Positions 10,152-31,195 of a stretch of DNA of 64,000 nucleotides are shown piece after piece. Positions within the stretch are counted from its first letter, which is position 1, and the number at the start of each line of letters is the position of its first letter. Origin of the DNA: an uncultured Acidobacteriaceae bacterium (GTDB lineage Bacteria > Acidobacteriota > Terriglobia > Terriglobales > Acidobacteriaceae); NCBI GenBank assembly GCA_964641665.1, contig CAZXKO010000038.1:118271-182270 (forward strand), in the 5' to 3' direction. A program made the position numbers and the translations under genes. Below the pieces are notes generated by a model. That model ran no database searches. It saw only the letters and a program-made list of their open reading frames with translations, and was not told the DNA's origin.

Positions 10152-10385
10152 CACACCGTCCTCGAACAGGATCAATCAGGACTCGGTGTTTCGAATCCTA
10201 ATTACAAGACTGTAAACAGTAACGACTTGCGTACATAGATAACTGTAGGGCAATGACCCGTCGAGACACGGAAGTACATTTTTGTGGTTTTTGTCGACTG
10301 GAAGGTAACGACCGAAAAAGGGGCTCGCTCCGAAAACGGCGCTCCGCACGGGGTTTCAGGCGCGTCTGAGAGGGGAAGGGGTCCT

Positions 10386-11033: not shown

Positions 11034-11237
11034 AACACTAGAGTGCGGGATACGTCGCGGTTCTGACTAGAGCACAGCTTGGTTCGTGTGTGACTTTCAG
11101 GGGATGATCTCGGGATTAGTGCGCTGCGACCCGAAGCCTACGGGCCACCGAACTAGCTGCGGGAATCCGCGTACATACTTGCGTGTCAATACCGTGAGGA
11201 GACAGTATTTTCAGTGGCCGCAGCCCGGCCGCGAGGG

Positions 11238-14565: not shown

Positions 14566-15780
14566 ATGGATGGGATGAGGGACGCGCCAGCGGCGGATCT
14601 GGGAACGGCCGAAGAGCTTCGCATGCCTGCGTCCCTCCGCGTGCGCCGCAAAGTTTTCTATCTGCTCGATTCTCTCGAAATTGGCGGAACGGAGACGCAG
14701 GCGGTCGAGTTGGCGTTGCGCCTGCCGGCTCACGAGTACGAGATCACGTTGGGATGTTTGCGACTGCAGGGCCCGCTCCTTGCCCGGTTCCGTGGATCCG
14801 GGGTGAGGGTCCAGGAATTTCATCCCAGGGGCGGGATCGATTCGCCGGCGGGCCTCTATCAACTTTTGCGGCTGGCGGTGTTTCTGCGGCGGCAGAGATT
14901 CGACGTGGTGCACACCCACGATCTTTGGTCGAACGTCATGGGCGTTCCGGCGGCGCGGCTGGCGGGCGTACCGGCCATTATTTCGAGCCGGCGGGATCTG
15001 GCGCACTTCGACTGGTACGAGGGGAAACGGCGGGTGTGGCTGCGGCGGATCCAGAACCTCTCGAACGTGGTGCTCGCGAACGCGACGCCGATCCGCGACG
15101 CCCTGGTTGCGGAAGATGGTTTCGCGCCCGAGAAACTGCGGGTCATTCACAACGGTGTGGACACCGAGAAATTCCAGCGCGGGAAGCGGGATCGGGAGCG
15201 GCTGGTTCCGGGCGCCGGGGACGGGAAGCTGGTAGTGCTGGTCGGAAACATGCACAGCGACGTGAAGGGGCACCCATGGCTGATTGCGGCAGCGCCCGCC
15301 GTGGTGCGGGAGTTCCCCAAGACGCGATTTGTTTTTGCGGGCGATGGAGAATCACGAGGGACGTTCCAGCAACAGGTGGCCGGGTTGGGCTTACAGCAGA
15401 GCTTTGTGTTTCTGGGACGGAGAGACGACATTCCCGACGTACTGGCCAGTTGCGACATCGCACTACTTCCGTCGAAGGCAGAAGGGCTGCCGAATGCAGT
15501 GCTGGAATATATGGCGGCAGGGTTGCCGACGATCGCGAGCCGGGTGGGGGGCAACGCAGAGCTGGTGCAGGATGGGGTGACGGGATTGCTGGTTCCGGCA
15601 CAGGATTCGGAAGCGCTGTCGAATGCTCTACTGTGGTTATTGCGGGATTCGGAGTTGTCGCAAAGGATCGCGTCCGAAGGGCGACGGCTGGCGACCGAGG
15701 GTTTCAGCTTCGAACGACTGGTCCGGGAAACGGACGAACTCTACACGGAACTTCTGGAGCAGCGCGAAGGCAGACGATAG
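14566..15780 (+). CDS. glycosyltransferase family 4
   Basis: 404-aa ORF. VFYLLDSLEIGGTETQ N-terminus and C-terminal EGLPNAVLEYMAAGLP (GT4 E-x7-E region). Confidence 0.85.
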   Translation: MDGMRDAPAADLGTAEELRMPASLRVRRKVFYLLDSLEIGGTETQAVELALRLPAHEYEITLGCLRLQGPLLARFRGSGVRVQEFHPRGGIDSPAGLYQLLRLAVFLRRQRFDVVHTHDLWSNVMGVPAARLAGVPAIISSRRDLAHFDWYEGKRRVWLRRIQNLSNVVLANATPIRDALVAEDGFAPEKLRVIHNGVDTEKFQRGKRDRERLVPGAGDGKLVVLVGNMHSDVKGHPWLIAAAPAVVREFPKTRFVFAGDGESRGTFQQQVAGLGLQQSFVFLGRRDDIPDVLASCDIALLPSKAEGLPNAVLEYMAAGLPTIASRVGGNAELVQDGVTGLLVPAQDSEALSNALLWLLRDSELSQRIASEGRRLATEGFSFERLVRETDELYTELLEQREGRR

Positions 15781-15783
15781 GCG

Positions 15784-18153
15784 ATGGCGAAGACATCCCA
15801 ATGGGCGCGTCGCATGGCTCGGCTGCGGTCGATGAGCGGGGAGGAACTCTTCGATCGGGTGCGGCAGCAGGTTACGGCGCGAATCGATGCGATGCGTTGC
15901 AAGAGGGGACATGACCTTGCCGGAGAACTTCCTGAGAGCTTGGGTGTAGGGGGACGATTTTTCTTCACGCAGTCCGAGGTTGAAGGGCTATGCAAGGTGC
16001 TGAAGCAGCAGTTTCCGGCTGCGGCGGCGGACATCGTGGCGCGGGCGAGGCGGATTTTGCGGCACCGGTTCGATTTATTGGGGTACGAAAATCTGGACTA
16101 TGGCGCAGAGATCGATTGGCACCTGGACCCGGTACATGGCAACCGGGGCCCGACGAAGCCATGGTTCAAGGTCAACTACCTGGACTTCGAGGAAGTGGGG
16201 GACTCGAAGATCACCTGGGAACTGAACCGGCACCAGCATCTGGTGACGCTGGCAAAGGCCTACCGGCTGACGGGGGATGACAGGTTTGCACACGAGCTGG
16301 TTGCGCAGTGGCAACACTGGCAAAAGGCAAATCCATATCCCATCGGGATGAACTGGGCGAGCAGCCTAGAAGTGGCATTCCGGAGTCTGTCGTGGATATG
16401 GGTGTACTTCCTACTGGGAGACAGCCAGGTGATGACGGCCGAATTGCGCCGGCAGTGGATGCGGGCGTTGGTGTTCAGCGGACGGCACGTCGAAGCTTAC
16501 CTTTCAACTTATTTTTCGCCGAACACCCATCTGCTGGGGGAGGCGGTGGCGCTGTTCTTTCTGGGCACGCTATTTCCGCAGTTGCGGAGGGCCGCCCGCT
16601 GGAAGCAGCGGGGATGGGAGATTGTGCTGCACTCGGCGGCGACGCAGGTTCGGGGCGACGGGTTTTATTTCGAGCAGTCGACCTACTATCACGTGTATGC
16701 GTTGGATCTGTTCCTGCATGCGCGCACGCTGGCGGCCGTGAACGATGTTGCCATATCGGCGGCGTTCGACGCGGTGATCCTCAAGATGCTCGATGCCTTG
16801 TGCCTGCTGGGCAGAGGCGGGGTTGTGGCGAGGCTGGGCGACGACGATGGCGGGCGCGTGTTTGACTCCCGGCGCAACCGGGCGGAGCACATGCTGGACC
16901 CGCTCAGTACGGGAGCGGTCTTGTTTGGGCGGGGAGACTACAAGTTCGTTGTGGGAGCACTGCGAGAAGAGACGCTGTGGTTGCTGGGGACGCGAGGACT
17001 GCGCGAGTTCGAAGAACTCAAGAGCAGCGAACCGTCGGTGGCGTCGGCTGCTTTGCGGGAGAGCGGCCTTTACCTGATGGCGGACGCAGAGACCGGGCAG
17101 CAGTTGACCATTGATGCCGGGCCACACGGCCCAGGGCACGGGCACGCGGATGCCTTGAGCCTGAGCCTGGTGCGAAACGGCCGTGTACTGCTCATGGATC
17201 CAGGGACGTATGAGTACGCGGGGCTGGGTGAGGAAAGGGCGCGATATCGTGGAACCGGGGCGCACAACACGATGCGAGTAGATGGGTTGGATCAAGCGGA
17301 AGGTGCAGGCCCGTTTGGCTGGGCGAACCCGCCCAGTGTGTGCGCAGAACGCTGGGTGGCGGCACAACAATTTGATTTGTTGGCCGGCCGTCATGATGGG
17401 TATTCGCGCTTAACGGAACCGGTCGAGCACCAGCGCTGGGTGTTTCATCGCAAGGGGCAGTTCTGGCTGGTGCGGGACGTGGCGACTGGGCAGGGAAAGC
17501 ATCTACTGGAGTTGACGTGGCACCTGGGGCCGGCGCTGTCACCGGTTTCGACCAAAGATAATTTGTTTGCCGACGGGCCGGACACTCTTGGTCTGGTCAC
17601 GGTGGAGGGGCACGGGTGGTGGCAGAGCGGTGACCGGGGCAACTGGTCTCCGGTGTACGGACGCGCGGAGCGCGCGACGGTGCTTACCTTCGGCTCGACG
17701 ACGGGATTGCCTGCCGAGTTTGTAACGCTGCTGGTGCCGGATGCAAGTTTGCACGCGGGGATAGGACGGCTAGAGCGAGTGGCGAGTGGCGCGGCGGTCC
17801 ACGGCTACCGGTACACGCGGGAAGGGCAGGAGCACCAGTTTTTCTTCGCGAACGCAGAAGGTGCATGGAGGCTGGGGAACTGGACGAGTGACGCGCGTTT
17901 TCTCTACTGGTCGTGGGATCGGGGACGAGATTTGCGTGTCCTCGTTCTGTGTGGGGGTGCGTATGCGGAGATCGGAGGCTCGCGGGTGGTCACGAGTGAG
18001 ACAGCGGTGGATTACGCTGAGGTGGTGAGTGCCGCCGGCAAGACAGAATTGTTTTCCTCTGCTCCGGAGCAGGTGACTCTGCGGGAATCGCTGGATCGAG
18101 TGGAGATGGAATTCGCGGCGTTGAACAATGACCTGAAACGGACGGGCATGTAG
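15784..18153 (+). CDS. heparinase II/III-family (alginate-lyase-like) protein
   Basis: 789-aa ORF. WELNRHQHLVTLAKAYRLTGDDRF...NWASSLEVAFRSLSWIW is characteristic of the heparinase II/III family. Starts 3 nt after the upstream GT4. Confidence 0.8.
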   Translation: MAKTSQWARRMARLRSMSGEELFDRVRQQVTARIDAMRCKRGHDLAGELPESLGVGGRFFFTQSEVEGLCKVLKQQFPAAAADIVARARRILRHRFDLLGYENLDYGAEIDWHLDPVHGNRGPTKPWFKVNYLDFEEVGDSKITWELNRHQHLVTLAKAYRLTGDDRFAHELVAQWQHWQKANPYPIGMNWASSLEVAFRSLSWIWVYFLLGDSQVMTAELRRQWMRALVFSGRHVEAYLSTYFSPNTHLLGEAVALFFLGTLFPQLRRAARWKQRGWEIVLHSAATQVRGDGFYFEQSTYYHVYALDLFLHARTLAAVNDVAISAAFDAVILKMLDALCLLGRGGVVARLGDDDGGRVFDSRRNRAEHMLDPLSTGAVLFGRGDYKFVVGALREETLWLLGTRGLREFEELKSSEPSVASAALRESGLYLMADAETGQQLTIDAGPHGPGHGHADALSLSLVRNGRVLLMDPGTYEYAGLGEERARYRGTGAHNTMRVDGLDQAEGAGPFGWANPPSVCAERWVAAQQFDLLAGRHDGYSRLTEPVEHQRWVFHRKGQFWLVRDVATGQGKHLLELTWHLGPALSPVSTKDNLFADGPDTLGLVTVEGHGWWQSGDRGNWSPVYGRAERATVLTFGSTTGLPAEFVTLLVPDASLHAGIGRLERVASGAAVHGYRYTREGQEHQFFFANAEGAWRLGNWTSDARFLYWSWDRGRDLRVLVLCGGAYAEIGGSRVVTSETAVDYAEVVSAAGKTELFSSAPEQVTLRESLDRVEMEFAALNNDLKRTGM

Positions 18154-18155
18154 TC

Positions 18156-20096
18156 ATGTGTGGAATCTGCGGAATCTTTTATATCGACCGGGCGCGGCGG
18201 GTGGAGCGGGAAACGCTGGCGGAGATGAACCAGCGGATCGTACACCGGGGGCCCGATGACGACGGCTTCCTGGTGGAGGGGAATGTCGGGCTGGCGATGC
18301 GCCGCTTGAGCATCATCGACATTCGAACCGGGCACCAGCCGATCGCGAATGAGGATGAGAACCTCTGGATCGTCTATAACGGCGAACTCTACAACCACCA
18401 GGAACTGCGCAAGGATCTGGAGAAGCGGGGGCACCGCTACCGCACCAAGAGCGACACGGAGACGATTGTCCACCTGTACGAGGAGTACGGGCGCGACTGC
18501 GTGAAGTACCTGCGTGGCATGTTCGCGTTTGCGATCTGGGACCGGCCGAAACGGCAGTTGTTCATCGCGCGCGACCGGCTGGGGATTAAGCCTCTTTACT
18601 ACCGCTACGACGGGAAAACACTGCTGTTTGGTTCCGAGATCAAGGCGATTCTCGCCTACCCCGTCGTGAAGGCAGAGTTTAACCGGGGCGCGCTCGCGGA
18701 GTACCTGGCGTTCGGGTACGTCGCAGGGGCAGAGACGATGTACGGCGGGATTCAGAAACTCCTGCCCGGGCACACGCTCGAACTCGATGAACGGAGCGAG
18801 ATGAAGGTGTCGCGCTATTGGGATCTGGAGGTCAGGGGCGACGAGGGGACACAACCCCGCAGTCACTACGTCGAACGGTATCGGGAATTGCTGGAAAGCT
18901 GCGTTTCCAGCCACCTGATGAGCGATGTGCCGCTGGGTGTGTTCCTGAGCGGCGGTCTGGATTCGAGCGTGGTGGCGGCTTTGACGACCAAGATCCGCAA
19001 GGAGCCGATTGAGACCTTCGCGGTCGGGTACGGGGAAGCAGCGTTCAGCGAGCTTCCGTTTGCGCGCGCGGTGGCAAAGCACATTGGGTCGAAGCACCAC
19101 GAAGTGCGGTTGAGCCGTGAAGAATTCTTCCAGACATTGCCGCGTTTAATCTGGCACGAAGATGAGCCGATCGTATGGCCGTCGAGCGTCTCGCTGTATT
19201 TTGTGGCGCGGCTGGCGCGCGAGCGAGTGACGGTGGTGCTGACGGGAGAGGGCAGCGACGAGACCCTGGCAGGCTACACGCGTTACCCGTGGACGTTGCT
19301 CAATTCACGCCTGGACGGGGTTTACCGGGCTGTGACCCCGGACGTGCTACGGCGAATGGTGCGCAGCGGAATACGGGGCGGGCCGTTGCCGGCGGCGTTG
19401 CACCGCAAGCTGGAACACACGTTCTTGGGGCGGGATGGGGCATCCTGGCCATCATTTTATTTCGACAATTTCTATTCGGCCTTTTCAGGGGCGGAGCAGG
19501 ATGAGCTGTTGACGGCGGATGCGAAGCGGCGCGGGGGCGATCCCTATGCGGGATCGATGCAATACTGGAATGCCTCGTCGGGCGATCTGCTGCACCGGCT
19601 GCTCTACACCGACATCAAGACGTATCTGGTGGAGTTGCTGATGAAGCAGGACCAGATGAGCATGGCGGCTTCCATCGAAAGCCGGGTGCCGTTTCTGGAT
19701 CACGAGCTGGTGGAGTTCACGGCCACGATTCCTGCGAGATACGAGGTGGAAGGTCTGGCGGGAAAATTCATTCTGAAATTGGCGGTGGAGGATCTGCTTC
19801 CGCGCGAAATCGTGTACCGGCAGAAGATGGGATTTCCGACACCGTGGGCCTACTGGCTGGCAGGGCCGCAGCTGGAGGCCCTGGAACAATTACTGCTCGA
19901 ACCGCGGACGGTCGAGCGGGGGCACTTCCGCGCGGAGATCGTCAAACGACTTTTTGCGGAGCACCGGGCGGGGCGTCGCGATCACGGGAACCGTATTTGG
20001 CGGCTGCTGAACCTGGAACTCTGGCAACGAGTGTGCCTGGAGGGAGAATCGGTTGACGAAGCTGCGCAACCGCAGAATGCAGTCGCCTTGCGATGA
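18156..20096 (+). CDS. asnB: asparagine synthase (glutamine-hydrolysing)-family amidotransferase
   Basis: N-terminal nucleophile MCGI; PP-loop FLSGGLDSS; 646 aa. Starts 2 nt after the heparinase-like gene. Confidence 0.9.
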   Translation: MCGICGIFYIDRARRVERETLAEMNQRIVHRGPDDDGFLVEGNVGLAMRRLSIIDIRTGHQPIANEDENLWIVYNGELYNHQELRKDLEKRGHRYRTKSDTETIVHLYEEYGRDCVKYLRGMFAFAIWDRPKRQLFIARDRLGIKPLYYRYDGKTLLFGSEIKAILAYPVVKAEFNRGALAEYLAFGYVAGAETMYGGIQKLLPGHTLELDERSEMKVSRYWDLEVRGDEGTQPRSHYVERYRELLESCVSSHLMSDVPLGVFLSGGLDSSVVAALTTKIRKEPIETFAVGYGEAAFSELPFARAVAKHIGSKHHEVRLSREEFFQTLPRLIWHEDEPIVWPSSVSLYFVARLARERVTVVLTGEGSDETLAGYTRYPWTLLNSRLDGVYRAVTPDVLRRMVRSGIRGGPLPAALHRKLEHTFLGRDGASWPSFYFDNFYSAFSGAEQDELLTADAKRRGGDPYAGSMQYWNASSGDLLHRLLYTDIKTYLVELLMKQDQMSMAASIESRVPFLDHELVEFTATIPARYEVEGLAGKFILKLAVEDLLPREIVYRQKMGFPTPWAYWLAGPQLEALEQLLLEPRTVERGHFRAEIVKRLFAEHRAGRRDHGNRIWRLLNLELWQRVCLEGESVDEAAQPQNAVALR

Positions 20097-20135
20097 CGTT
20101 TCCGCTTTTGAACCCATGAGAGTAGGTGGCTGAAA

Positions 20136-21200
20136 TTGTCGATGCTCAGAGGCATCAAACGTACGACTTTGCGCTCGCTGAAGGCTGCCGGCATCTTCGA
20201 GCGGGTCGCCGACAGCCGGTGGAGGCGGGAACGGCTGCTGATCCTTTGCTATCACGGCACCTCGATCGAAGACGAGCATTTGTGGAGGCCGGGGTTATAT
20301 ATCGAGCCCACGGTGCTGGAACAGCGCCTGAAGATTCTAAAGACGGGCGGTTACACGGTGTTGCCGCTGGGGGAAGGGCTGCAGCGACTGCAGGCTGGAA
20401 GCCTGCCGGCACGAAGCGTGGCGCTTACCTTCGATGATGGTCCCTATGATTTTTACAGGCAGGCATACCCGCTTTTGAAGCGCTACGGGTATCCGGTGAC
20501 GGTGTACCAGACGACCTACTACACCGATTACGAGCGGCCGATATTCAATCTGATTTGCTCTTACCTGTTGTGGAAGCGACGGGGAGAAATCATTGCAGAT
20601 GGGCGGGAACTGGGCTTGACGCAGCCGATGGATCTGCGCACGGAGAGTGGGCGTCACCAGGTGGTCGTCAGCTTGCTGGAGCTTTCTGTGCGGCAACAGA
20701 TGACGGGTGCGGAAAAGGATGCGCTAGCGGCGCGGCTGGCAAAATTTCTGGGAATCGATTACGACGCGCTGGTGGCAAAGAGGATCATGCAGCTGATGAA
20801 CGGCCGTGAGGTGAAGGAAATAGCCAGCAAGGGCGTGGACATCCAGCTGCATACGCATCGTCATCGGACGCCCGAGGACGAAAACCTGTTTCGCCGGGAG
20901 ATCCGCGACAACCGGGAGCGGATTCAGGCATTGATTTCGTCGACGCCGGTGCATTTCTGTTATCCGAGCGGGGTGTACCGGCCGGAGTTCTTGCAGTGGC
21001 TGGCCGCGGAGCAAGTGGTGTCGGCGACGACTTGTGATTCCGGGCTAGCGAGCCGACAGAGTGAGAGGCTCCTTATGCCGCGGTTCATCGATAACCAGTA
21101 CCGCACGTCGGTGGATTTCGAGAGCTGGATTTCGGGGGTGGGGTCCTTGCTGGCCGTGCGGCCTGCGGCTACGCAGAGGTATGTGCCGATGGAAGTGTGA
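20136..21200 (+). CDS. polysaccharide deacetylase family protein
   Basis: LILCYHG.., LTFDDGPYDFY and HTHRH motifs (NodB-like). Confidence 0.8.
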   Translation: MSMLRGIKRTTLRSLKAAGIFERVADSRWRRERLLILCYHGTSIEDEHLWRPGLYIEPTVLEQRLKILKTGGYTVLPLGEGLQRLQAGSLPARSVALTFDDGPYDFYRQAYPLLKRYGYPVTVYQTTYYTDYERPIFNLICSYLLWKRRGEIIADGRELGLTQPMDLRTESGRHQVVVSLLELSVRQQMTGAEKDALAARLAKFLGIDYDALVAKRIMQLMNGREVKEIASKGVDIQLHTHRHRTPEDENLFRREIRDNRERIQALISSTPVHFCYPSGVYRPEFLQWLAAEQVVSATTCDSGLASRQSERLLMPRFIDNQYRTSVDFESWISGVGSLLAVRPAATQRYVPMEV

Positions 21201-21333: not shown

Positions 21334-22131
21334 CTACCGTACGGGATGCATGTGGGGGGCGAGCTGGGTTAGCAATTCCTGATGCAGATTCGGGGCGCTG
21401 GCAATCAGGCCGGACAGAAGGGGATTCTGGTTGTTCGCGGCGAAGGGAGTTTTCTCCAGGGTGGCGACGCAGCCACCGGAGCTCAGGACCAGCGCGGCGC
21501 CCGCGGCCACGTCCCACTCGTTCTTGGGAGTCAGCGTGAAAGTTGCGTCGGCGAGGCCAGCAGAAACGAGCGCCAGCTTGTAAGCTACCGAACCCATCGC
21601 CTTGATGTGCATGGGCCCGTTTTCAAACTGCTTCCATTCTCCACGCTTCACTTCGCTGCGGCTGGCGAGGACAACGGCGCCATCCAAGCTGGAGCGCGAG
21701 CTGGCGCGGGCAGGCTCGCCATTGTAGAGCACGCCCACGTCGATGGCCCCGGTGAAAGTTTCACCGCTGGCCGGGTTGCAGATACCGCCTGCAACGGGGC
21801 GGCCGTCTTGCACGAATCCAATGGAAACGCAAAACTCCGGGATCCCTTTTACGAACTCGCGGGTGCCATCCAGCGGGTCGACCACCCACACGTGAGATTT
21901 GGAGAGACGGGAGAGATCATCGACACTCTCCTCGGAGAGCCAGCCTTCGCCGCTGCGCAGCAGGCTCTGGCGGAGGACGGCGTCGATGGCACGGTCGGCT
22001 TCGGTGACGGGGTCGTGGCCAGCCTTGAACTCGGCATCAATCGCGCCGGGGGTAAAGCGACTGAACACGGTACGGGCATCGCCAAGTGCGGCTGCGATTC
22101 GGTCCAAGATGTCAGAGTATGAAGAAGTCAT
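21334..22131 (-). CDS. cysQ: inositol monophosphatase-family protein, CysQ-like 3'(2'),5'-bisphosphate nucleotidase
   Basis: WVVDPLDGTREF and EWDVAAG motifs. Sits beside the sat-cysC fusion. Confidence 0.75.
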   Translation of the reverse strand: MTSSYSDILDRIAAALGDARTVFSRFTPGAIDAEFKAGHDPVTEADRAIDAVLRQSLLRSGEGWLSEESVDDLSRLSKSHVWVVDPLDGTREFVKGIPEFCVSIGFVQDGRPVAGGICNPASGETFTGAIDVGVLYNGEPARASSRSSLDGAVVLASRSEVKRGEWKQFENGPMHIKAMGSVAYKLALVSAGLADATFTLTPKNEWDVAAGAALVLSSGGCVATLEKTPFAANNQNPLLSGLIASAPNLHQELLTQLAPHMHPVR

Positions 22132-22156
22132 TGGTCCTGGATGCTGCCGGGAGAAC

Positions 22157-22927
22157 TTATGCCCAAAGCATTCTTGCCCCTGTGATCAAGAGGACGAAAC
22201 ACAAAATCCGTCGCAGCCAGAGCACGGGCACGCGCGTGCTCAAATGAGAACCAAGCAGTCCGCCGGGGATGGAGCCGATCAGCAAGGCCGCGACCAGTCT
22301 GGGATCCACATTGCCCAGGCGGAAATGAAGGAATCCGGTGACGCCGGTGAGCAGGACGGCGTGGACAATGTCGGTTCCAACATTGACCTTGGGGGGATAA
22401 CTGTAAAAGAGCAGCAGCATCATCATGATGATGCTGCCCGAGCCCACCGAGGTCATGCCGACCAGGAAGCCGGAGCACAGGCCGATGATGGTCATGCCGG
22501 CGAAGGAACTGAGGGTGGGCGGGCGGTTGGCCATGCGCTCTTCGATGCGGGTCTGAAACATCAGCAGCAGCGGAATGCAGACCAGAAGGATACCGATGGC
22601 CAGCTTGATGAGGTGGTTGACACCGTCTCCGTACACGTGGCGGAGATGGGTGAGGTAGGCGACACCGGCGGCGGACCCAGGAACGCTGCCGAAGGCGAGA
22701 GCGAGCACCACCTTGCGGCGCACCGTGCCGCGGTTGAGATGCACGATGCTGGCGGGGATTTTGGTGAAGAAATTGAAGAGCGCATCCGAGCCGACGGCCA
22801 TGATCGCGGGGACTCGGAGGCCGAAGATGAGGATGGGCAGCAGCAGAACGCCGCCGCCCAGGCCGGTCAGGCCGATGAGAGTGCCTACCATAAAGCCAAC
22901 CAGGATTTTGACAGCAATCAAGACCAT
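22157..22927 (-). CDS. TauE/SafE (TSUP) family anion permease
   Basis: 256-aa polytopic membrane protein with GLTGLGGGVLLLP and a repeated half-architecture. Confidence 0.85.
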   Translation of the reverse strand: MVLIAVKILVGFMVGTLIGLTGLGGGVLLLPILIFGLRVPAIMAVGSDALFNFFTKIPASIVHLNRGTVRRKVVLALAFGSVPGSAAGVAYLTHLRHVYGDGVNHLIKLAIGILLVCIPLLLMFQTRIEERMANRPPTLSSFAGMTIIGLCSGFLVGMTSVGSGSIIMMMLLLFYSYPPKVNVGTDIVHAVLLTGVTGFLHFRLGNVDPRLVAALLIGSIPGGLLGSHLSTRVPVLWLRRILCFVLLITGARMLWA

Positions 22928-22986
22928 GGCAAAAGGCGCCGAACTTCGCGCTTACAGAGTGAAGTCTCCCCTGAGATTGATTTCGG

Positions 22987-24804
22987 TTACCCGATGAAGC
23001 CCTGCTGCTCCAGGTGCAAAATGATCTCCTGGGCGGACTCTTCCGGCGACAGTTCGGCTGTGTTGATGACGACTTCCGCGTTCTGCGGGGGCTCGTACGG
23101 ATCGGAGATGCCGGTGAACTCCTTGATGATGCCGGCACGCGCCTTGGCATAGAGGCCCTTGCGGTCGCGCTCTTCGCAGGTCTCGATGGGAGTTGCCACG
23201 TGGACCAGGACGAAACCGCCGAAGGGTTCGACCATCTCGCGAACCTGTTTGCGGACCGCGTCATAGGGAGCGATGGGGGCGCAGATAGCAATGCCACCGT
23301 TCTTCGTGATTTCGGAAGCAACGTAGCCGATGCGGCGAATGTTGATATCGCGATGTTCCTTGGAGAAACCAAGTTCGGACGAGAGATGCTTGCGAACTAG
23401 GTCGCCGTCGAGGATGGTTACCGGACGGCCACCTGTCTCAAGAAACTTGGTGAGCAGGACGTTTGCAATTGTGGACTTGCCGGAGCCGGAGAGGCCGGTG
23501 AAGAAGATGGTCAGGCCCTGCTTGTGACGGGGCGGGTAGCTGCGGCGCAACTCCAGGACGACTTCGGGGTAGGTAAACCAAGCAGGGATGTCGCGGCCGC
23601 CGTTGAGGCGCTCGCGCAGTTCGGTTCCGGAGATATTCAGGACGCAGGAACCGTTCGGGACCTCGTTGTCGGGAACATATTTGTCCTGGTCCTCGAGGTA
23701 GACCATCATGTTGAAGGGGACCATCGTGACGCCGATGTCGGCCTCGTGCTTTTTGAACAGCTCTTGCGCTTCGTAGGGGCCGTAGAAGTTCTTGCCGTCG
23801 GTGTCCTTGCCGGGACCGGCGTGATCACGGCCAACAATGAAGTGGGTGCAGCCATGATTCTTGCGGATGAGGCCATGCCAGATAGCTTCGCGGGGGCCGC
23901 CCATGCGCATGGCGAGGGGGAGCATGGCGAGCTTCACGGTGCCGTGCGGATACTTGGAGAGCAGGAGTTCATAGCAGCGGACGCGGGTGAAGTAGTCGAC
24001 ATCGCCGGGCTTGGTCATACCGACCGAGGGGTGAATGAGGAGATTGGCTTCGACTTGTTTGGCGGCGCGGAAGGTGAGTTCCTGATGGGCGCGGTGCATG
24101 GGATTGCGGGTCTGGAATGCGACCACCCGGCGCCAACCGAGGCGTGAGAATTCGGCGCGCAACTCGGCGGGGGTGAGACGGAGAGCGCGGAAGTCGTAGT
24201 GGGAGGGCAGTTGCAGTCCTTCCAGGGTTCCACCGACGTACCAGGGGTTGGCCCTATTGATGGCGTAATCGGCCCCCGGATGAGCTTTGCTGGTAGTGCC
24301 GAAAACGCTTTTGGCTTCGGCGGCACGATCGGGCTGCCAGACGTCTTCCACGTTAAGCACGGCGAGCATGACACCCTCGGGATCGCGCAGAGCGACTTTG
24401 CTGATGTCGGGCTTGAGAGACTTGGCAAAATTTTCGGAGACGTCGAGGGTAATCGGCATGGGCCAGAGCACACCACTGGCCAGCCGCATGTTGTGACAGA
24501 CACCTTCGTAGTCGGCACGCGTCATGAAGCCGCGCAAGGGAGAGAATCCACCATTCAGTAAGAGCTCGACATCGCAGATCTGGCGCGGGAGGAGATCCCA
24601 GGAGGGCCACTCTTTCGAATGAGCCTTGAGGTCGGCAGCGCGATCAGATGGGGCGATGAGTTGAGTGAGTTCTCCGCCGTGCGGCGGAATCAAATGGCTC
24701 GTCGAAGTCAATTTCTTAGGCCTCCTGGGCTCAAAGTCATTCCTGCTGGGATGAAACGCCGGGATCGAAATCCGGGCGGATGCCTGCGGCAATTTGCTCT
24801 GCAA
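22987..24804 (-). CDS. sat-cysC: bifunctional sulfate adenylyltransferase / adenylyl-sulfate kinase
   Basis: ATP-sulfurylase motifs LIPPHGGEL, QTRNPMHRAHQEL and GCTHFIVGRDHAG. C-terminal APS kinase P-loop GLSGSGKST. The true start may be the TTG near 24711. Confidence 0.9.
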   Translation of the reverse strand: MQSKLPQASARISIPAFHPSRNDFEPRRPKKLTSTSHLIPPHGGELTQLIAPSDRAADLKAHSKEWPSWDLLPRQICDVELLLNGGFSPLRGFMTRADYEGVCHNMRLASGVLWPMPITLDVSENFAKSLKPDISKVALRDPEGVMLAVLNVEDVWQPDRAAEAKSVFGTTSKAHPGADYAINRANPWYVGGTLEGLQLPSHYDFRALRLTPAELRAEFSRLGWRRVVAFQTRNPMHRAHQELTFRAAKQVEANLLIHPSVGMTKPGDVDYFTRVRCYELLLSKYPHGTVKLAMLPLAMRMGGPREAIWHGLIRKNHGCTHFIVGRDHAGPGKDTDGKNFYGPYEAQELFKKHEADIGVTMVPFNMMVYLEDQDKYVPDNEVPNGSCVLNISGTELRERLNGGRDIPAWFTYPEVVLELRRSYPPRHKQGLTIFFTGLSGSGKSTIANVLLTKFLETGGRPVTILDGDLVRKHLSSELGFSKEHRDINIRRIGYVASEITKNGGIAICAPIAPYDAVRKQVREMVEPFGGFVLVHVATPIETCEERDRKGLYAKARAGIIKEFTGISDPYEPPQNAEVVINTAELSPEESAQEIILHLEQQGFIG

Positions 24805-25127
24805 TCCGAATGAACGGGAGCGAAACAGAACAACTTAGATTTAGATCCCAGCTGGGGTGGAAGGTGAGGGCAAAAGTCGTACACCCGGTCCCCGCTGAGG
24901 CTCCCCGCTAAACGATTGATATCTATATGCTTAATATTCTCTGACGTTTGGGCATTCTAGACAAGCGCAAAGCCAAGAATTTTCGCTTGTATTCGATGGT
25001 TCCTGCCCATTTTTCCTTACTTTCCGCTACATATTGATTTTGCTGCAGGGCCCACGGACTCGAAAGGTTACGATGTTTCTTGAGCGGCCCACAGAACGCG
25101 GAATCATGATCAAGAACATGGCGAGGG

Positions 25128-26981
25128 GTGCGTTCGGAAGCCAGTCCTCGGTTGGCCATGGTATATTTCCGGCTTCTCGCCAGAATGCCTGGAAGGGGAC
25201 CGGGCGTCGATCCAATGTCATCGAGAACGAGCGGTACTCCGACGATCTTTTCTGAGATTGGCGGCCCTTTCTACAGAAATTCCGCAAGCGTAATGACGGG
25301 AGCTGGGGCGGCGTTTCTGCTTGCCCTGGGCATTGCTTTGCGCCTAGCCACTTATTTTGCGGACCGGTCACTGTGGGGCGATGAAGTGGCCATCGCGCTC
25401 AATCTGCGCTTTCGAGACTTTACGGGGTTATTGGTGCCTCTGGATTATGAGCAGACCATGCCAATTCCCCTTTTGCTCAACATCAAATCGGTGGCTACGT
25501 TATTTGGATTTTCCGAATACACTCTGCGACTGACTCTGCTGGTGGCCGGGTGCAGTCTGCTGGTCGTAACCTGGCTGGCATTCTCGAGGGAACTGGGTGC
25601 AACGATTGCGCTGATCGGTGTTGGGCTGACGGCCGTTTACAAGCCACTGATCTACTACTCCTCCGAACTGAAGCAATATGGAGTGGATGCTCTGGTTAGC
25701 GCTGTAACCATCTGGCTGGTGCTGAGAGTGCTCAAGGAGCACCAGGATTCTGAGTGGCCGCGGCTGATCATCTGGGGCGTGTTGGGAATATTCCTGTCGC
25801 AACCGGCCATTTTTGTTTTAGCGGCCGTCGGGATAGCGGCTGTCATTGACCGGCGGTTTCGGACCTCGAAGCAGTGGCAAATCTACAACGGGTCGGCGGC
25901 CGTGATTTGGTTGGCTTGTTTCGGGACGCTGTTCTGGTTTTCCTACCGTGTAACTTCTCGCAGCACGTACATGCGGGCATTTTGGGCCGATTCGTTCCTG
26001 CATCCGACAGCGCCGCATTTTCGGCAAGAATTCGCAAAGGCTATTTACGTTCTTTTGGGGGTCGGAAACTTCAGTTCGGTCAGGTTGCTGATCCTGATCG
26101 CACTGTTCGGCATCGGCGCATATGGAGTTCTAAGAAGTCGTGGCGTGCCCGGGTTGGTCTTGGCCGTGGGCCCATTTGTGGCCGTCTTGGCTGCCGCTGC
26201 AGTGCAGGCATATCCAATTGCGGAAAGGCTTTCGCTGTTCTTGAGCCCGTTTCTTTTTTGGATATATGCCTCCGGTGCAGCGATTGTGGCCGGCTGGCTT
26301 CCTCAAAAAGCAAGAACGGCAGGAGTAATCGGGCTGAGTTTGGCATTGTTTGCGCCAACCGGCATAGCGAGCGTTCAATACGCCTGGCGATTCCCCATGC
26401 GGGAAGCGACCCGTCAACTGGTAGCGCGCATGAAGTCAACCGATCGGGACGCTCCGACGTACTTGGTTTTTGGCAAGTACCAGCAATGGGCCTACTACAC
26501 GGGCGACTGGAGCTACCCGGAGACCCTGAAAAGGAGAATCGATTCGGTCGACACTAGTCGCTGTGTGCAACTCATCGAACTCGGAGCCGTTATCAAACCC
26601 GATGAGTGCGCGAAAAAAATAGAAGGGGGCACCGTGAATATGCCCGGCGAGATCGTTGGAACTCCACCGCCCGGATCTTCGGAGGGGGTGCAGACGGAAC
26701 TGCTATGGGCAGGGAGTGAGGCGCAGAGAATCATTGCCGAAACGACGGCTGAGCACAAGGATCGCTTCTGGCTGTTTCTACCTATTTACAACGAGAACGC
26801 GAAGCAGCGCGGACTTTTGGAGAAGCTGACGAACGCCTTGGAAGGAGATGGCGCGGGCCGCCTCGATACGTTCTCCCTCGGGGACAGCGTTGCATTGAGA
26901 TACCGGATCCAGGGGAACGGTCCGCGAGCAATGTCAGGAAGAGTTGTGGATCCTGCCGATCCGTCTTCTGTCCGCAACTAG
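25128..26981 (+). CDS. GT-C-fold membrane glycosyltransferase (ArnT/PMT-like)
   Basis: About 10 TM helices, an early-loop motif RSLWGDE, and a ~200-aa soluble C-terminal domain. The start is ambiguous (ATGs at 25128, 25158, 25185, 25215, 25293). Confidence 0.6.
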   Translation: MRSEASPRLAMVYFRLLARMPGRGPGVDPMSSRTSGTPTIFSEIGGPFYRNSASVMTGAGAAFLLALGIALRLATYFADRSLWGDEVAIALNLRFRDFTGLLVPLDYEQTMPIPLLLNIKSVATLFGFSEYTLRLTLLVAGCSLLVVTWLAFSRELGATIALIGVGLTAVYKPLIYYSSELKQYGVDALVSAVTIWLVLRVLKEHQDSEWPRLIIWGVLGIFLSQPAIFVLAAVGIAAVIDRRFRTSKQWQIYNGSAAVIWLACFGTLFWFSYRVTSRSTYMRAFWADSFLHPTAPHFRQEFAKAIYVLLGVGNFSSVRLLILIALFGIGAYGVLRSRGVPGLVLAVGPFVAVLAAAAVQAYPIAERLSLFLSPFLFWIYASGAAIVAGWLPQKARTAGVIGLSLALFAPTGIASVQYAWRFPMREATRQLVARMKSTDRDAPTYLVFGKYQQWAYYTGDWSYPETLKRRIDSVDTSRCVQLIELGAVIKPDECAKKIEGGTVNMPGEIVGTPPPGSSEGVQTELLWAGSEAQRIIAETTAEHKDRFWLFLPIYNENAKQRGLLEKLTNALEGDGAGRLDTFSLGDSVALRYRIQGNGPRAMSGRVVDPADPSSVRN

Positions 26982-27056
26982 CTTCGCGGCGCAGTAGACC
27001 TGTTCGTTTTCTAGCGCGAAAGTGCGGCGGGCTTCCGGGTCCGTCCGGAGCGGGAG

Positions 27057-28607
27057 CTACTGCTGCTCCTCCTGATAGGTGTCGATCAAGGCGATGGCGA
27101 CCTCGTCCAATTGCCGGCTGGAAAGTTCTCCCACCCGCCAGACGCGCTTGGTTCGGAGGGCCCAGAGTACGCCCAATCCGTAGGGCACCATGCTGATCAG
27201 AATCTGTATCCCAACCTGTACAACCGTACGAGCCAAGAACCAGTGGCGCATCAAGAACAAGGTCAGGACCAGTGGGGCACACAGGAGAAGGGGCAGAACG
27301 TAGGCCTCGCGGAGAAACGTGCCAACGCGAACGCCGAGGAGCCTGCACAGATGGCGAGGCATGAAGAACAGCGTCGTGCAGAGCAAAGGCAGCGCTGTGC
27401 CTGCAGCGTCGCCGAGGAGACCGAAAGGGCGGATCAGGACGACGCTGAGAATAAGGTTGGCCCCGCTCTCCATCAATGTGATCCAGGCATAGGACTGGTG
27501 TTTGGCCATACCGTACAGGATGCGGACCGAGGCGCCCTGAGCAAGAGCGAGCGTGCTGGGGATCAGCAGGACGAGAAGCACGGGGTAACTGATCGCGACG
27601 TAGCGAGCGCCCACCCAGGCGGTAATGACGGATCTCCCCAGAATGAGAAGAATCGCGGTGATGGGGAAGATGATGAGGGCGCAAGCGCGGTTACCGGCAA
27701 CCAAGATCTTTCTCAGCCGATCGATATCGCCTTGGGCGTCGGACTGGCCCGACATGGGAACAAAGATCTGGGCGAGGCTGCTCACGACTTCCGAGGCATA
27801 GTCGACGAGGCGGTCCGCGATGGAGAAGAAGGTAATCGCCGCGACCGGCATAAAGGCGCCAATAACAATCTCGTCGGTCTTGAAGCGCAGCTTGTAGGCG
27901 ATCATGAGGATAAAGCTGACGGCGCTGTAATTCGCGATCTCGCGGAAGGAACTGCGGTCGACGTATTTCCAACTGAGTGAAACGGGCAGGATGCGGAACA
28001 CGATGGCGGCACGGACAAGCGAACCAAGGATCGGCAAGCCGACTGTGATAAGAGCAACGGTGAGCAGGCCGCGGCCGTGATTCAGGGCGATGACGATGAG
28101 CACGGCACGAAGCAGGGTGGACGCGAGATTGGTGGCATTGACCCAATAAAAGCGCTGCAGGCCCTCGAGAATCCCGCCGAAGACGCCCGTGGGAAAGCCG
28201 AGAGCGACCGAGGCGCCGACCATAAGGAAGAGCCAACGGGCGGTGGCGAGGAACTCCAAGGGAATGTGGAACAAAGATTCGATGAACGAAGTGGCGAGCA
28301 GGGTGACGACCATCGTAAAGGCGCCGATCACGGCGTAGCTGAGGAGGCTGGTGTTGATGAGCTTCGCCAGGGCTTCGGTGTTGTTGGTGGCGCAGTAGGT
28401 GGAGACGTAGCGGATGACGGAGGAACGGATTCCTAGATCAAAGAGGCCGTAGTATCCGGTGACCGAGAAAATGAGGACCCAAATGCCGAAGGCGGTGTCG
28501 CCGAGGCGATGCAGGATGAAGGGGGAGAGGAAGATGCCAACCAGGATGTTGACTCCCAGGCTGAACCAACTGGAGCCGACATTCTTGACGATCTCAGTAT
28601 GGCGCAT
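27057..28607 (-). CDS. oligosaccharide/polysaccharide flippase (Wzx / MOP superfamily)
   Basis: 516 aa, 12 or more TM segments. N-terminus KNVGSSWFSLGVNILVGIFLSPFILHRLG is typical of polysaccharide biosynthesis flippases. Confidence 0.85.
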   Translation of the reverse strand: MRHTEIVKNVGSSWFSLGVNILVGIFLSPFILHRLGDTAFGIWVLIFSVTGYYGLFDLGIRSSVIRYVSTYCATNNTEALAKLINTSLLSYAVIGAFTMVVTLLATSFIESLFHIPLEFLATARWLFLMVGASVALGFPTGVFGGILEGLQRFYWVNATNLASTLLRAVLIVIALNHGRGLLTVALITVGLPILGSLVRAAIVFRILPVSLSWKYVDRSSFREIANYSAVSFILMIAYKLRFKTDEIVIGAFMPVAAITFFSIADRLVDYASEVVSSLAQIFVPMSGQSDAQGDIDRLRKILVAGNRACALIIFPITAILLILGRSVITAWVGARYVAISYPVLLVLLIPSTLALAQGASVRILYGMAKHQSYAWITLMESGANLILSVVLIRPFGLLGDAAGTALPLLCTTLFFMPRHLCRLLGVRVGTFLREAYVLPLLLCAPLVLTLFLMRHWFLARTVVQVGIQILISMVPYGLGVLWALRTKRVWRVGELSSRQLDEVAIALIDTYQEEQQ

Positions 28608-28658: not shown

Positions 28659-29738
28659 TCAAACAGTCCTCGGCCCGGCGGGGGTATTCAGGTTGAGGGT
28701 CTCGGTGCTGAGTCCGAGGTCGTTCAGTAAGCGCGCTCCCTGTTCGCGTTTCCGGCGGGCCACGCGCTGGAGGTGGGAGCGATAATAACGTTGCAGCAAG
28801 CCCGGGAAAAGGCGAAGTGCGAGTTGGACGGCGAGTAGTCTCCAGTCATGGACGGCGGAGGTAGCCTTGCGAGCGGCGCGTCCGGCCTCGTCAAATTGCC
28901 CAGCTAGTAGCGACTGCCGCACGACGTCGAGTTGGATTTCCGCCTCAGTCTGCGAGATCTTGCCGCGGGCCATGAGGGCCTGCCTTTCCGTGAGCGGCTG
29001 CGTCGACGAGATCTTCCTGTAGACCTCAATGCGGGCCTGTCTCATGAGATCGCGGTTCCCGGCGAGTCCATTACCGAGCCGGTGGTACATCTGAATCTCG
29101 CGGGTGAAAGTCATTTTTACCCCATTGCGTGCCATTCGCAGCCACAGATCGTAGTCTTCACAGCGAATGAAGCGCTCATCGAACAGCCCGGCTTCGACGA
29201 GTGCCTGCCGTGAGGCCATGGTGGAGGAGGTGCTCACTGCGCATTCCTCGAGCAGGAGGTTTTCGAAGTCTACGGGCAGGGACTGGGGAGTGACCTCGAA
29301 GTCAATCGAGACCGGGTGGCTGCCCTCGAGCAGCACAGCGTTCGAATAGATGAGTCCGATAGAGGGATCCTTCTGGAGAGCCTCCACGTGTTTTGCCAAA
29401 TGATGAGGGAACCAAAGATCATCACTATCGAGGAATGCGATGTACTTTCCGCGCGCCTCCCGGATGCCCACGTTCCGGGCACTGCTGGGGCCGCGATTGT
29501 CCTGACGGAGGTAGCGAATCTTCGCAAGATACGGCTGCAAGGCTTGTTCGAGTGCCGGTGTGTCGGGCGAACCGTCATTGATAACGATGATTTCGTAGTT
29601 AGCGAGAGTCTGGGCCAGCACAGAATTCAAGGTCAACGCAATATAGGGGGCCGCGTTGTAGGCAGGGATGACGACGCTGACGAGCGGGCCAGGCGCCGAT
29701 GGGGGCTGCTGAGGAATGTCGGTCTGAGTCGAATTCAT
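28659..29738 (-). CDS. glycosyltransferase family 2
   Basis: VSVVIPAYNAAPYI, INDGSPD and DSDD motifs. Confidence 0.9.
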   Translation of the reverse strand: MNSTQTDIPQQPPSAPGPLVSVVIPAYNAAPYIALTLNSVLAQTLANYEIIVINDGSPDTPALEQALQPYLAKIRYLRQDNRGPSSARNVGIREARGKYIAFLDSDDLWFPHHLAKHVEALQKDPSIGLIYSNAVLLEGSHPVSIDFEVTPQSLPVDFENLLLEECAVSTSSTMASRQALVEAGLFDERFIRCEDYDLWLRMARNGVKMTFTREIQMYHRLGNGLAGNRDLMRQARIEVYRKISSTQPLTERQALMARGKISQTEAEIQLDVVRQSLLAGQFDEAGRAARKATSAVHDWRLLAVQLALRLFPGLLQRYYRSHLQRVARRKREQGARLLNDLGLSTETLNLNTPAGPRTV

Positions 29739-30055: not shown

Positions 30056-31195
30056 TCACGACGACTCCAGGGTCAGGTCTGCCCAGATGGTGGAGGGGGC
30101 CGGTGTCCTTGCGGGCGGTGCCTCCGCCGCGGACTGTCGCCAAGCGGCGTCCAGCACGGCTTGGACGGCGGGCATGTTGTCCAGGGTGGCGGCTTCGATG
30201 GTGAGGGAAATGTTCATCAAATCGGCGAATTCTCGAATCTTGCGATCGTAAGGCATGAGGATGACGGGACGGCCGCAAGATAAGGCCAGGACCGCCGCGT
30301 GCAGCCGCATGGCGACGACAAAGCGCGCAGCGCGTATCCAGCGACAGACTTCGTTCAAGTCGGCGGTCCAGGGGCGCAACTGTACTTGATCGGTGTGGCT
30401 CATGACCTGCGCAACGCGTTCGTGCAATTGAGCATCCCCATGCCCACTAGCCGGATTGGCTTGAAACGGGATGAAGATTACCTTGACCTGGTGGCGCTCG
30501 ATCAAGTCGTCCAAGCTGGCAGCCAGCGTCTGGATTCGAGTTCCGGTCATCTCATAAAGCCGGAAAACGTGCGGATCGTTCCGGAGACAGACCACCACGC
30601 AAGGTCGAGTCGCGGGCATTTCTGACAATAGGACTGAACGCTTGGCCAACAGGTCGGGCAAGCAGAGAACGATATCGGGGGCAAGTATAGTCTTCGCGCT
30701 GGCGTCGAGCTGGTGGCAGATTTTCTCGGATCGGTGGTCGCGCACAATGATGCGGCGGCTCCGGCGGAACACCCACCGTAAGAGGACGCGTCCGTAGCGG
30801 GTTGAAGGTTCCCCGACGCCTGCATTGACCAAGTAGACCTTTTTGCCGAGGAGAATAGCGACGATCATTTTCTCTATCGTGTAGAAGAACGTCCGCCACC
30901 CCAAATCATCACGAATGAGGTCGCCTCCGCCAACAATCAACGCGTCACTGTGGCGGATGGTGCGGAGCACGCGCAGGGCCCCGCCTTTGAACCACGCGGT
31001 GCGCCAGGCCCATTCTCCTAATAGAGGGCAATTCTCGACGGCGGGGAGTTGGTGGCTGCGCGTGACCTCAGCGGGCCGCTCCGACAAAACCGTCAGCTGG
31101 AAGTTCTGCCGCTCGAGCCAGGGTCGGAGACAGAACAGCATCATTTCGTCGCCCAGGTTTCCCATTCCGTAGTAGCCCATTAGCAGTGCTTTCAT
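30056..31195 (-). CDS. polysaccharide pyruvyl transferase family protein
   Basis: N-terminal GYYGMGNLGDEMM, as in CsaB/WcaK-type pyruvyl transferases; 379 aa. Confidence 0.8.
   Translation of the reverse strand: MKALLMGYYGMGNLGDEMMLFCLRPWLERQNFQLTVLSERPAEVTRSHQLPAVENCPLLGEWAWRTAWFKGGALRVLRTIRHSDALIVGGGDLIRDDLGWRTFFYTIEKMIVAILLGKKVYLVNAGVGEPSTRYGRVLLRWVFRRSRRIIVRDHRSEKICHQLDASAKTILAPDIVLCLPDLLAKRSVLLSEMPATRPCVVVCLRNDPHVFRLYEMTGTRIQTLAASLDDLIERHQVKVIFIPFQANPASGHGDAQLHERVAQVMSHTDQVQLRPWTADLNEVCRWIRAARFVVAMRLHAAVLALSCGRPVILMPYDRKIREFADLMNISLTIEAATLDNMPAVQAVLDAAWRQSAAEAPPARTPAPSTIWADLTLESS

Follow-up and report, generated by a model that had tools for sequence, protein, structure and literature searches.

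A 64-kb stretch of contig CAZXKO010000038.1 from an uncultured member of the Acidobacteriaceae (hereafter the window, meaning the whole of this DNA) carries a polysaccharide gene cluster of a soil acidobacterium, within which three genes form one operon: an ATP sulfurylase fused with an adenosine 5′-phosphosulfate (APS) kinase, Sat-CysC; a permease of the TauE/TSUP family; and a phosphatase of the IMPase superfamily. The explanation that we favor, with a probability of roughly 0.7, is that this trio supplies 3′-phosphoadenosine 5′-phosphosulfate (PAPS) for sulfation of the surrounding, probably Wzx/Wzy-type polysaccharide. PAPS supply for a sulfated glycan had been proposed in an earlier interpretation made from the letters of the window (the sequence-only reading), and the sulfotransferase genes found beside the same trio in related bacteria lend it independent support; a sulfotransferase fragment at the window edge also speaks for it. 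The design is already documented in marine Gammaproteobacteria; what differs here is the phylum, the Sat-type fusion, the TauE permease, and the divergent phosphatase.

The three open reading frames (ORFs; 21334–22131, 22157–22927, and 22987–24804) all run in the same direction on the minus strand, and the gaps inside the trio, 59 and 25 bp, fit a single operon. Their position between a polysaccharide deacetylase gene and the genes for a GT-C glycosyltransferase (GT) and a flippase, as described in the sequence-only reading, is confirmed by Pfam matches of these neighbors (Table 1). The right edge of the trio needs a correction: the start codon of Sat-CysC is a TTG at 24711, preceded by an AGGAGG ribosome-binding site, and the database copy of the protein has 574 residues, so the gene is 22987–24711. 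The formerly given edge at 24804 overshoots by 93 bases, and 24712–24804 is upstream leader. The divergent region between Sat-CysC and the GT-C gene is the putative promoter region of the operon; it contains no Rfam element, a sigma-70 scan of it gave no convincing match, and a promoter and terminator scan stayed at or below shuffle expectation.

The fusion is the best defined of the three products. In addition to its three Pfam domains, it passes the NCBIfam equivalog model for the bifunctional enzyme, NF004040, at 933.1 bits against a cut-off of 669, with residues 7–573 covering positions 5–570 of the 572-position profile. Both ATP sulfurylase motifs are present (QTRNPMHRAH at residues 200–209 and GRDHAG at 294) and are identical in the aligned yeast and Penicillium chrysogenum enzymes, and the APS kinase motifs are intact as well (P-loop GLSGSGKST at 406 and LDGD at 434). 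On account of these motifs, both enzyme activities are predicted. The two domains have different nearest relatives: the N-terminal one finds its best matches in the active ATP sulfurylases of yeast and Penicillium (about 473 bits) and matches the N-domain of Thiobacillus denitrificans 3CR8 poorly (255 bits), whereas the C-terminal one is about 76% identical to the kinase domain of 3CR8 (278 bits). The publication on 3CR8 reports its APS kinase as active and its N-domain as inactive.

The second product, previously recognized as a TauE/TSUP anion permease, belongs to that family by a full-length PF01925 match (159 bits against a threshold of 32.6, positions 2–237 of the 237-position profile) and by about eight hydrophobic segments. 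The TauE family was named for sulfite and sulfoacetate export, and for two of its members sulfate import has since been demonstrated through complementation of Escherichia coli cysA and co-fitness with sulfate adenylyltransferase (PMC11535334). TK06_RS10770 and Ac3H11_578, of the same Pfam family as the permease of the window, lie beside sulfate-activation genes and act in assimilation, and TK06_RS10770 complements E. coli cysA (PMC11535334). From its gene context, we infer that the permease studied here imports sulfate.

The third product is securely placed in the IMPase superfamily (PF00459, 165 bits against a gathering threshold of 27), with E67, E68, D85, P86, D88, G89, T90, W206, and D207 invariant across 33 orthologues; these residues belong to the EE, DPxDGT, and WDxAAG metal-binding motifs. 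Of its earlier description as a CysQ-like phosphatase of 3′-phosphoadenosine 5′-phosphate (PAP), the superfamily and the linkage to Sat-CysC hold, and the assignment to CysQ itself does not reach the curated level. CysQ TIGR01331 is the best curated family, yet the score is 116 bits against a cut-off of 228.8; a second CysQ model, NF008182, gives 73 bits against 379, and HisN is nearly tied at 113.8. A profile built from the 33 orthologues remains ambiguous among SuhB/IMPase, CysQ, and HisN, with CysQ having the lowest E-value against NCBIfam (1.9e-41) and SuhB leading against PDB (125 bits, followed by Bacteroides CysQ at 111 and Mycobacterium tuberculosis CysQ at 83). These scores count against the proposed pathway at its recycling step. 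The gene stays linked to Sat-CysC down to about 67–70% identity, including distant homologues without TauE, and because the protein scores under the curated CysQ cut-off, it is this conserved linkage that points to PAP phosphatase activity, that is, to the CysQ role.

Taken together, the ambiguities of the three products could be assembled into an account with no PAPS pathway at all, in which the kinase-like domain would be regulatory as in fungi, the TauE protein would export sulfite or a sulfonate, and the phosphatase would act on inositol or histidinol phosphate. Among PDB entries, the fusion indeed has its best full-length match in the P. chrysogenum enzyme, whose C-terminal domain is regulatory, the family name of the permease recalls export, and the phosphatase scores equally against SuhB/IMPase, HisN, and CysQ. 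However, the fungal domain has lost both the P-loop and the DGD motif, reading GYMNSGKD and LLGD at the aligned positions, whereas both are intact in the window. The similarity of the C-domain to the 3CR8 kinase, the score against the bifunctional equivalog model, and the persistent linkage of the three genes across dozens of lineages likewise speak against such an account, which we regard as very improbable.

How far the trio and its surroundings are conserved was followed in 92 related loci (labeled L with a number), which together with the window amount to 1.16 Mb. Sat-CysC has at least 8000 homologues at E ≤ 1e-50, and a metagenome scan added at least 595 further matching stretches; identity is about 90% across hundreds of proteins from soil metagenomes, the named examples of which are Terriglobales, and neighbors of the locus's left arm bear the name Candidatus Sulfotelmatobacter. 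For 80 metagenome loci, fetched at 67–90% Sat-CysC identity, gene content was scored with local probes. Where Sat-CysC is at least about 81% identical and enough downstream DNA is available, the trio is co-directional and intact in 33 of 35 loci, and the arrangement is thus not due to chance. Among distant homologues, four keep the trio, three keep the phosphatase only, and nine have Sat-CysC alone.

The trio keeps company with sulfotransferase genes. Once redundancy is removed and a minimum of 5 kb of upstream and 7 kb of downstream DNA is required, 16 trio loci remain, of which 10 have at least one sulfotransferase gene (one to three) within 10 kb of the trio, some of them at a distance of only 0.1–2.7 kb; given a handful of such genes per genome, we roughly estimate that a few percent would be expected by chance. 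In GCA_037024635, GCA_046728215, and a JGI contig, one or two Sulfotransfer_1 genes come after the core known from the window (dehydrogenase, GT4, heparinase-like protein, AsnB, and trio), and two of these loci also have the deacetylase. Both canonical motifs, YPRSGNTW and RDPRDVA, are present in these Sulfotransfer_1 proteins. Between Sat-CysC and the flippase (within 24712–28607), a slot varies while its flanks are conserved: it holds the PMT_2 GT-C in the window, nothing in L009, and a deacetylase, an ATP-grasp protein, a sulfotransferase, and LMWPc in L001 and L010, with the same set minus the sulfotransferase in L005. The pattern suggests that the glycan diversifies in the manner of serotypes. 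L005 also has, between regulators and the flippase, a 333-aa protein with no Pfam match (L005:3673–4674, +), at a place where others have Sulfotransfer_1.

In the window itself, the sulfotransferase is represented by its last 70 codons and stop at the left edge (1–213, +), which had been suspected to be the C-terminus of such an enzyme and is now identified as the end of a Sulfotransfer_3-family gene cut by the window boundary. Alone, the fragment has no Pfam match, and a protein search with it found only another truncated fragment. A genome scan brought up a 339-aa acidobacterial protein that matches Sulfotransfer_3 at 4.6e-29 and ends in 70 residues with 59% identity to the fragment. The fragment aligns end to end with the C-terminal 70 residues of proteins encoded in L013, L007, and L011, at 71% (50/70), 59%, and 55% identity, respectively, and these syntenic orthologues pass PF13469 at 8.5e-27 to 4.6e-29. 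The 70 residues fall beyond the Pfam domain, and the PAPS-binding motifs are therefore read in the orthologues: that of L013 (14198–15220, 340 aa, PF13469 8.5e-27) carries GCGRSGTT and RDARDVALS, and across the three orthologues the motifs are GCGRSGTT and RD(G/A)RDVALS. A search of the window in six frames by tblastn, phmmer, and a hidden Markov model of three sulfotransferases returned only the edge fragment, and the ORFs 4478–6502, 10284–10952, and 11214–11594 gave no sulfotransferase signal.

The synteny reaches beyond the fragment. L013 and L011, longer contigs reached through neighbors of the oxidoreductase gene of the left arm (2247–4430), show what lies past the window edge. L013 reproduces the order of the window exactly, with oxidoreductase, GT4, FkbM methyltransferase, and then Sulfotransfer_3 on the opposite strand, and this left-arm order beside a Sulfotransfer_3 gene also occurs in L011 and L007. 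Past the sulfotransferase, L013 has a second AsnB paralogue, Wzy_C, a GT2, a priming Bac_transf, and a Wzc-like ATPase. Wzy_C, Bac_transf, and CbiA/AAA_31 are not in the window and stand just past the sulfotransferase in both L013 and L011, and the flippase is in the window. From the gene content of L013, the locus of the window almost certainly continues leftwards and is probably of the Wzx/Wzy type.

The presence of a sulfotransferase leaves its acceptor to be considered. PAPS could serve an enzyme acting on a lipid, a tyrosine of a peptide or protein, or a small metabolite, in which case the polysaccharide would be unsulfated. The Sulfotransfer_1 and Sulfotransfer_3 families do include lipid, peptide, and small-molecule enzymes; the Sulfotransfer_1 proteins of the relatives are nearest to cytosolic phenol and steroid sulfotransferases (SULTs) and to glycopeptide sulfotransferases, and the Sulfotransfer_3 orthologue has only weak matches, one to 2ZQ5, deposited as uncharacterized and which we take to be a mycobacterial sulfotransferase, and one to a chain that was entered under the name of a polyketide synthase. 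In every locus examined, however, the sulfotransferase genes are found amid genes for glycosyltransferases, flippase, Wzy, and priming transferases, and Pfam finds no accompanying lipid or peptide biosynthesis genes in the window. A non-polysaccharide acceptor is therefore judged improbable, and a glycan is the acceptor that the surroundings suggest.

Several further observations weigh against glycan sulfation as the role of the trio. Within 20 kb of the operon there is no sulfotransferase gene in the window, the sole one being that at the edge, about 21–23 kb away, and the two slots that hold the sulfotransferases of relatives contain either the GT-C gene or nothing. The nearest relatives by Sat-CysC, L005 and L006 (93%), are without a sulfotransferase within 10 kb. 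Four loci, L015, L018, L028, and L036, keep the trio without any glycan marker or sulfotransferase gene within 10 kb; in these, its flanks consist of the GAF, Zn-ribbon, and efflux genes of the same backbone and of regulators, along with a small GT2 or phosphopantetheinyl transferase, a TPR protein, and sigma-54 two-component genes. Sat-CysC and TauE, at 93% and 92% identity, are the most conserved products of the region, compared with 77–79% for the flippase, the deacetylase, and the heparinase-like protein, which would suit a housekeeping role. Finally, the sulfate on the polymer is itself a prediction from genes.

These observations give substance to the most serious competitor, in which the trio is a housekeeping module that takes up and activates sulfate, a PAPS reductase from another locus leads on to cysteine, and the place of the trio among the glycan genes is incidental or its use dual. 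To the four loci without glycan genes and the high conservation can be added the similarity of Sat-CysC, both over its full length and in its N-domain, to fungal assimilatory ATP sulfurylases as its nearest matches, the assimilatory function of the known TauE-family sulfate importers, and the distant locus L080, in which the Sat-CysC homologue is 71% identical. There (L080:1267–2031, −, and its neighbors), a Bacillus subtilis-type cysH (238 bits) and a TauE-like gene lie about 8 kb upstream of Sat-CysC, and the locus also has two phosphodiesterase-family genes and an IMPase-like gene. These surroundings look assimilatory, in contrast to those of the close relatives.

On the other side, the sulfotransferase genes are strongly enriched beside the trio, and neither in the window nor in the close relatives does it have cysH, cysD, or a sulfite reductase gene as a neighbor. 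The sequence-only reading had likewise seen no cysH or sulfite reductase with the module. Pfam scans of all large ORFs of the 64-kb window found no PAPS_reduct or NIR_SIR domains and no cysH, cysD, sulfite reductase, or cysteine synthase genes. CysH and CysD probes also found nothing in the window; the E. coli CysH probe was validated by 555 bits to PDB 2O8V, the B. subtilis CysH probe was checked indirectly by the concordant L080 match, and the CysD probe is unvalidated. Across the window and the 92 related loci, these probes found a reductase gene in L080 alone. Many bacteria, moreover, reduce APS directly and can do without APS kinase and PAP phosphatase. A literature search on acidobacterial sulfate assimilation yielded nothing usable. 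On balance, we consider a housekeeping or dual role in cysteine synthesis possible and clearly less probable than PAPS supply for glycan sulfation.

The four loci without glycan genes nevertheless say something about the operon as a whole: it is a conserved backbone element whose maintenance does not depend on the glycan locus, and for the same reason it may also serve cysteine synthesis. The trio is thus a stable chromosomal backbone element in Sulfotelmatobacter-like Terriglobales, the surrounding glycan genes vary like serotype cassettes, and it seems that they are gained or lost around the fixed trio.

For sulfation of the polysaccharide, the genes suggest a pathway of four steps. The TauE-family permease would first import sulfate. 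The Sat domain would then join sulfate and ATP into APS, and the fused CysC domain would phosphorylate APS to PAPS, the formation of which would pull the unfavorable first reaction forward. Cytoplasmic PAPS-dependent sulfotransferases would next sulfate the lipid-linked repeat unit, presumably before its export by the flippase; the candidate for this step is the Sulfotransfer_3 enzyme at the edge of the window, and in relatives one to three Sulfotransfer_1 or Sulfotransfer_3 enzymes encoded beside the operon. Lastly, the IMPase-family phosphatase would hydrolyze the inhibitory by-product PAP to AMP, as its conserved linkage suggests. The polymer is predicted to be acidic, to contain uronic acid, and to bear sulfate esters, with amidation, pyruvylation, methylation, and partial N-deacetylation as probable further modifications.

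A more specific structure can be imagined. The block of heparinase-like, AsnB, and deacetylase genes (15784–21200, +) adjoins the PAPS operon in most relatives, and together with the UDP-sugar dehydrogenase it resembles the logic of glycosaminoglycan modification, in which N-deacetylation precedes sulfation. The core of UDP-sugar dehydrogenase, GT4, heparinase II/III-like protein, amidotransferase, polysaccharide N-deacetylase, and PAPS operon might, with the sulfotransferases, build a polymer of uronic acid and hexosamine in which N-deacetylation is followed by N- and/or O-sulfation, which would make it a sulfated glycosaminoglycan similar to heparan sulfate. The sequences of the sulfotransferases gave no sign of glycosaminoglycan-type enzymes, those of the relatives resembling cytosolic SULTs and not heparan-sulfate sulfotransferases; this structure is accordingly speculative, and we hold it to be unlikely.

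PAPS synthesis serving sulfotransferases for secreted or surface molecules is known in bacteria, including rhizobial nodPQ with nodH, Xanthomonas raxPQ with raxST, and Mycobacterium cysDNC with stf, the acceptors of which are a lipo-chitooligosaccharide, a peptide, and a glycolipid, respectively. To our knowledge, all of these systems use CysDN-type sulfurylases and none has a linked TauE permease. The sequence-only reading had described sulfated exopolysaccharides as known from few bacterial lineages and a dedicated module as notable, which overstated the rarity, as PAPS modules in capsule clusters for sulfated polymers have been published for Cobetia and Vibrio. In region 2 of the capsule cluster of Cobetia marina KMM 1449, cysN/cysC, cysD, cysQ, and a gene for a sulfate permease form an operon, and the capsule is chemically sulfated (PMC11766843). 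As in the window, permease, ATP sulfurylase, APS kinase, and PAP phosphatase are thus grouped in a surface-polysaccharide cluster with a sulfotransferase. The components differ: Cobetia combines a CysC fusion of the GTPase-coupled CysDN with a canonical CysQ and a sulfate permease of unspecified type, in contrast to the homo-oligomeric Sat fused to CysC, the divergent IMPase-family phosphatase, and the TauE/TSUP permease described here. The Cobetia capsule, from a gammaproteobacterium, is exported by an ABC transporter (Kps), whereas the acidobacterial system, as predicted from its genes, is probably of the Wzx/Wzy type.

The capsule cluster of Vibrio sp. KMM 8419 contains second copies of cysD, cysN, and cysC together with sulfotransferase genes, and its authors consider PAPS-synthesis genes and sulfotransferases in one cluster a hallmark of sulfated polysaccharide synthesis (PMC11641403). 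No CysQ or permease is reported in that cluster, and its enzyme types differ from those of the window. The Sat/APS kinase of Aquifex aeolicus (2GKS) has the same order of PUA-like, ATP sulfurylase, and APS kinase domains as the fusion (612 bits), although the N-domain of the latter is nearer to fungal and yeast Sat and its C-domain to the kinase domain of 3CR8. Clusters with PAPS-type sulfotransferases and sulfated polymers are also known for synechan of Synechocystis (xss; PMC8205485) and for the glycosaminoglycan-like exopolymers of Pontiella (PMC7356697), in other phyla and in aquatic or marine habitats, as opposed to soil; the main text on Pontiella makes no mention of PAPS, adenylyltransferase, or cysQ (PMC7356697). 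A literature search that included acidobacterial reviews, comparative genomics, and work on Sulfotelmatobacter found no report of a sulfated polysaccharide in Acidobacteria.

If the favored explanation is true, Terriglobales make sulfated extracellular polysaccharides. About 95% of soil sulfur is organic, in the form of sulfate esters and sulfonates (PMC9694294), and an abundant bacterial polysaccharide source would bear on the origin of the ester-sulfate pool of soils, as well as on the charge of the matrix and on metal binding and water retention in soils. Were the polymer indeed similar to heparan sulfate, the ester sulfate of soils would have a direct microbial source in bacteria that are among the most abundant there, and many of the Acidobacteria matches to sat that are counted as potential for dissimilatory sulfate reduction would be PAPS synthases for matrix sulfation. 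Large surveys of Acidobacteriota genomes score sat as a marker of sulfate reduction; the sat described here, being fused to cysC and accompanied by sulfotransferase genes, should not be counted as such.

Table 1. Features of the glycan locus in the 64-kb window, from left to right.
Feature	Position	Strand	Evidence and remarks
C-terminus (70 codons and stop) of a Sulfotransfer_3-family gene, cut by the window edge	1–213	+	Tail identity to full-length orthologues
FkbM methyltransferase	234–1052	−	Pfam; left arm, adjoins the sulfotransferase fragment
GT4	1198–2250	−	Pfam; left arm
Bi-domain ADH/GFO oxidoreductase, 727 aa	2247–4430	−	Pfam; left arm
UDP-glucose/GDP-mannose dehydrogenase, predicted to supply uronic acid	12933–14258	−	Pfam UDPG_MGDP_dh N, central, and C domains
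GT4, conserved core	14566–15780	+	Pfam; L005 counterpart 91% identical
Heparinase II/III-like protein, conserved core	15784–18153	+	Pfam Hepar_II_III_N, Hepar_II_III_C; syntenic in L001, L005, L009, L010
AsnB-type glutamine amidotransferase	18156–20096	+	Pfam Asn_synthase 3e-101
Polysaccharide deacetylase, conserved core, convergent with the operon	20136–21200	+	PF01522 9.7e-20; 79% identical in L005
IMPase-superfamily phosphatase, 265 aa	21334–22131	−	Pfam Inositol_P (PF00459) 3.1e-48
TauE/TSUP permease, 256 aa	22157–22927	−	PF01925 1.8e-46; L005 counterpart 92% identical
Sat-CysC fusion, 574 aa	22987–24711	−	Pfam PUA_2 1.4e-51, ATP-sulfurylase 4.8e-86, APS_kinase 2e-58
Divergent intergenic region Sat-CysC/GT-C, 416 bp	24712–25127		Putative promoter region of the operon
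PMT_2-type GT-C membrane glycosyltransferase	25128–26981	+	PF13231 1.8e-09; 8 hydrophobic segments
Wzx-type polysaccharide flippase	27057–28607	−	Pfam Polysacc_synt, Polysacc_synt_3; 76–77% identical in relatives
GT2 glycosyltransferase	28659–29738	−	Pfam; 52% identical to the L001 GT2
Polysaccharide pyruvyl transferase, right end of the glycan locus	30056–31195	−	PF04230 1e-34

By Pfam scans of the window ORFs, the glycan genes extend from position 1 to about 31200, an approximately 31-kb locus that encloses the trio, and every gene from the sulfotransferase fragment to the trio is glycan-related. From left to right, the sulfotransferase tail (+) is followed by genes for the FkbM methyltransferase, a GT4, the ADH/GFO oxidoreductase, two large, possibly secreted paralogues and another methyltransferase, a GT4, the UDP-sugar dehydrogenase, a GT4, the heparinase II/III-like protein, the AsnB-type amidotransferase, the polysaccharide deacetylase, the trio, the PMT_2 GT-C, the Wzx flippase, a GT2, and the pyruvyl transferase. 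The amidotransferase resembles the type associated with XrtA/PEP-CTERM systems (TIGR03108, 579 bits, under the cut-off of that model). In the oxidoreductase of the left arm, a zinc-type alcohol dehydrogenase domain is fused to a GFO/IDH/MocA oxidoreductase domain; the protein is kept at 74–85% identity in more than 100 protein clusters, several of which are named Candidatus Sulfotelmatobacter, a GT4 gene always adjoins, and the fusion probably modifies a sugar nucleotide. The two large paralogues (4478–6502 and 7494–10175, both −) are each about 41% identical to a single protein of L007; He_PIG Ig-like domains are present in one, the other gives only a weak signal for a right-handed beta-helix, and they may be secreted enzymes that modify or degrade the glycan.

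To the right of the glycan locus lie genes for LuxR-type regulators, Zn-ribbon and GAF proteins, RND efflux, the pentose-phosphate pathway, and PilZ proteins. The three PilZ-domain proteins in the right half of the window (43567–44220, 57541–58194, and 58362–58730, all −) hint at control by cyclic diguanylate (c-di-GMP), possibly over polysaccharide production. A 962-aa fusion of transaldolase and phosphoglucose isomerase (52258–55146, −) is encoded together with transketolase, 6-phosphogluconate dehydrogenase, and glucose-6-phosphate dehydrogenase in one operon. The 541-aa ORF at 47890–49515 (+), with no Pfam match and a first-position GC of 0.76, looks like an antisense artefact and not a gene. 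GC skew is positive across all 2-kb bins of 1–64000, independent of gene strand, and all of the window thus probably belongs to a single replication arm.

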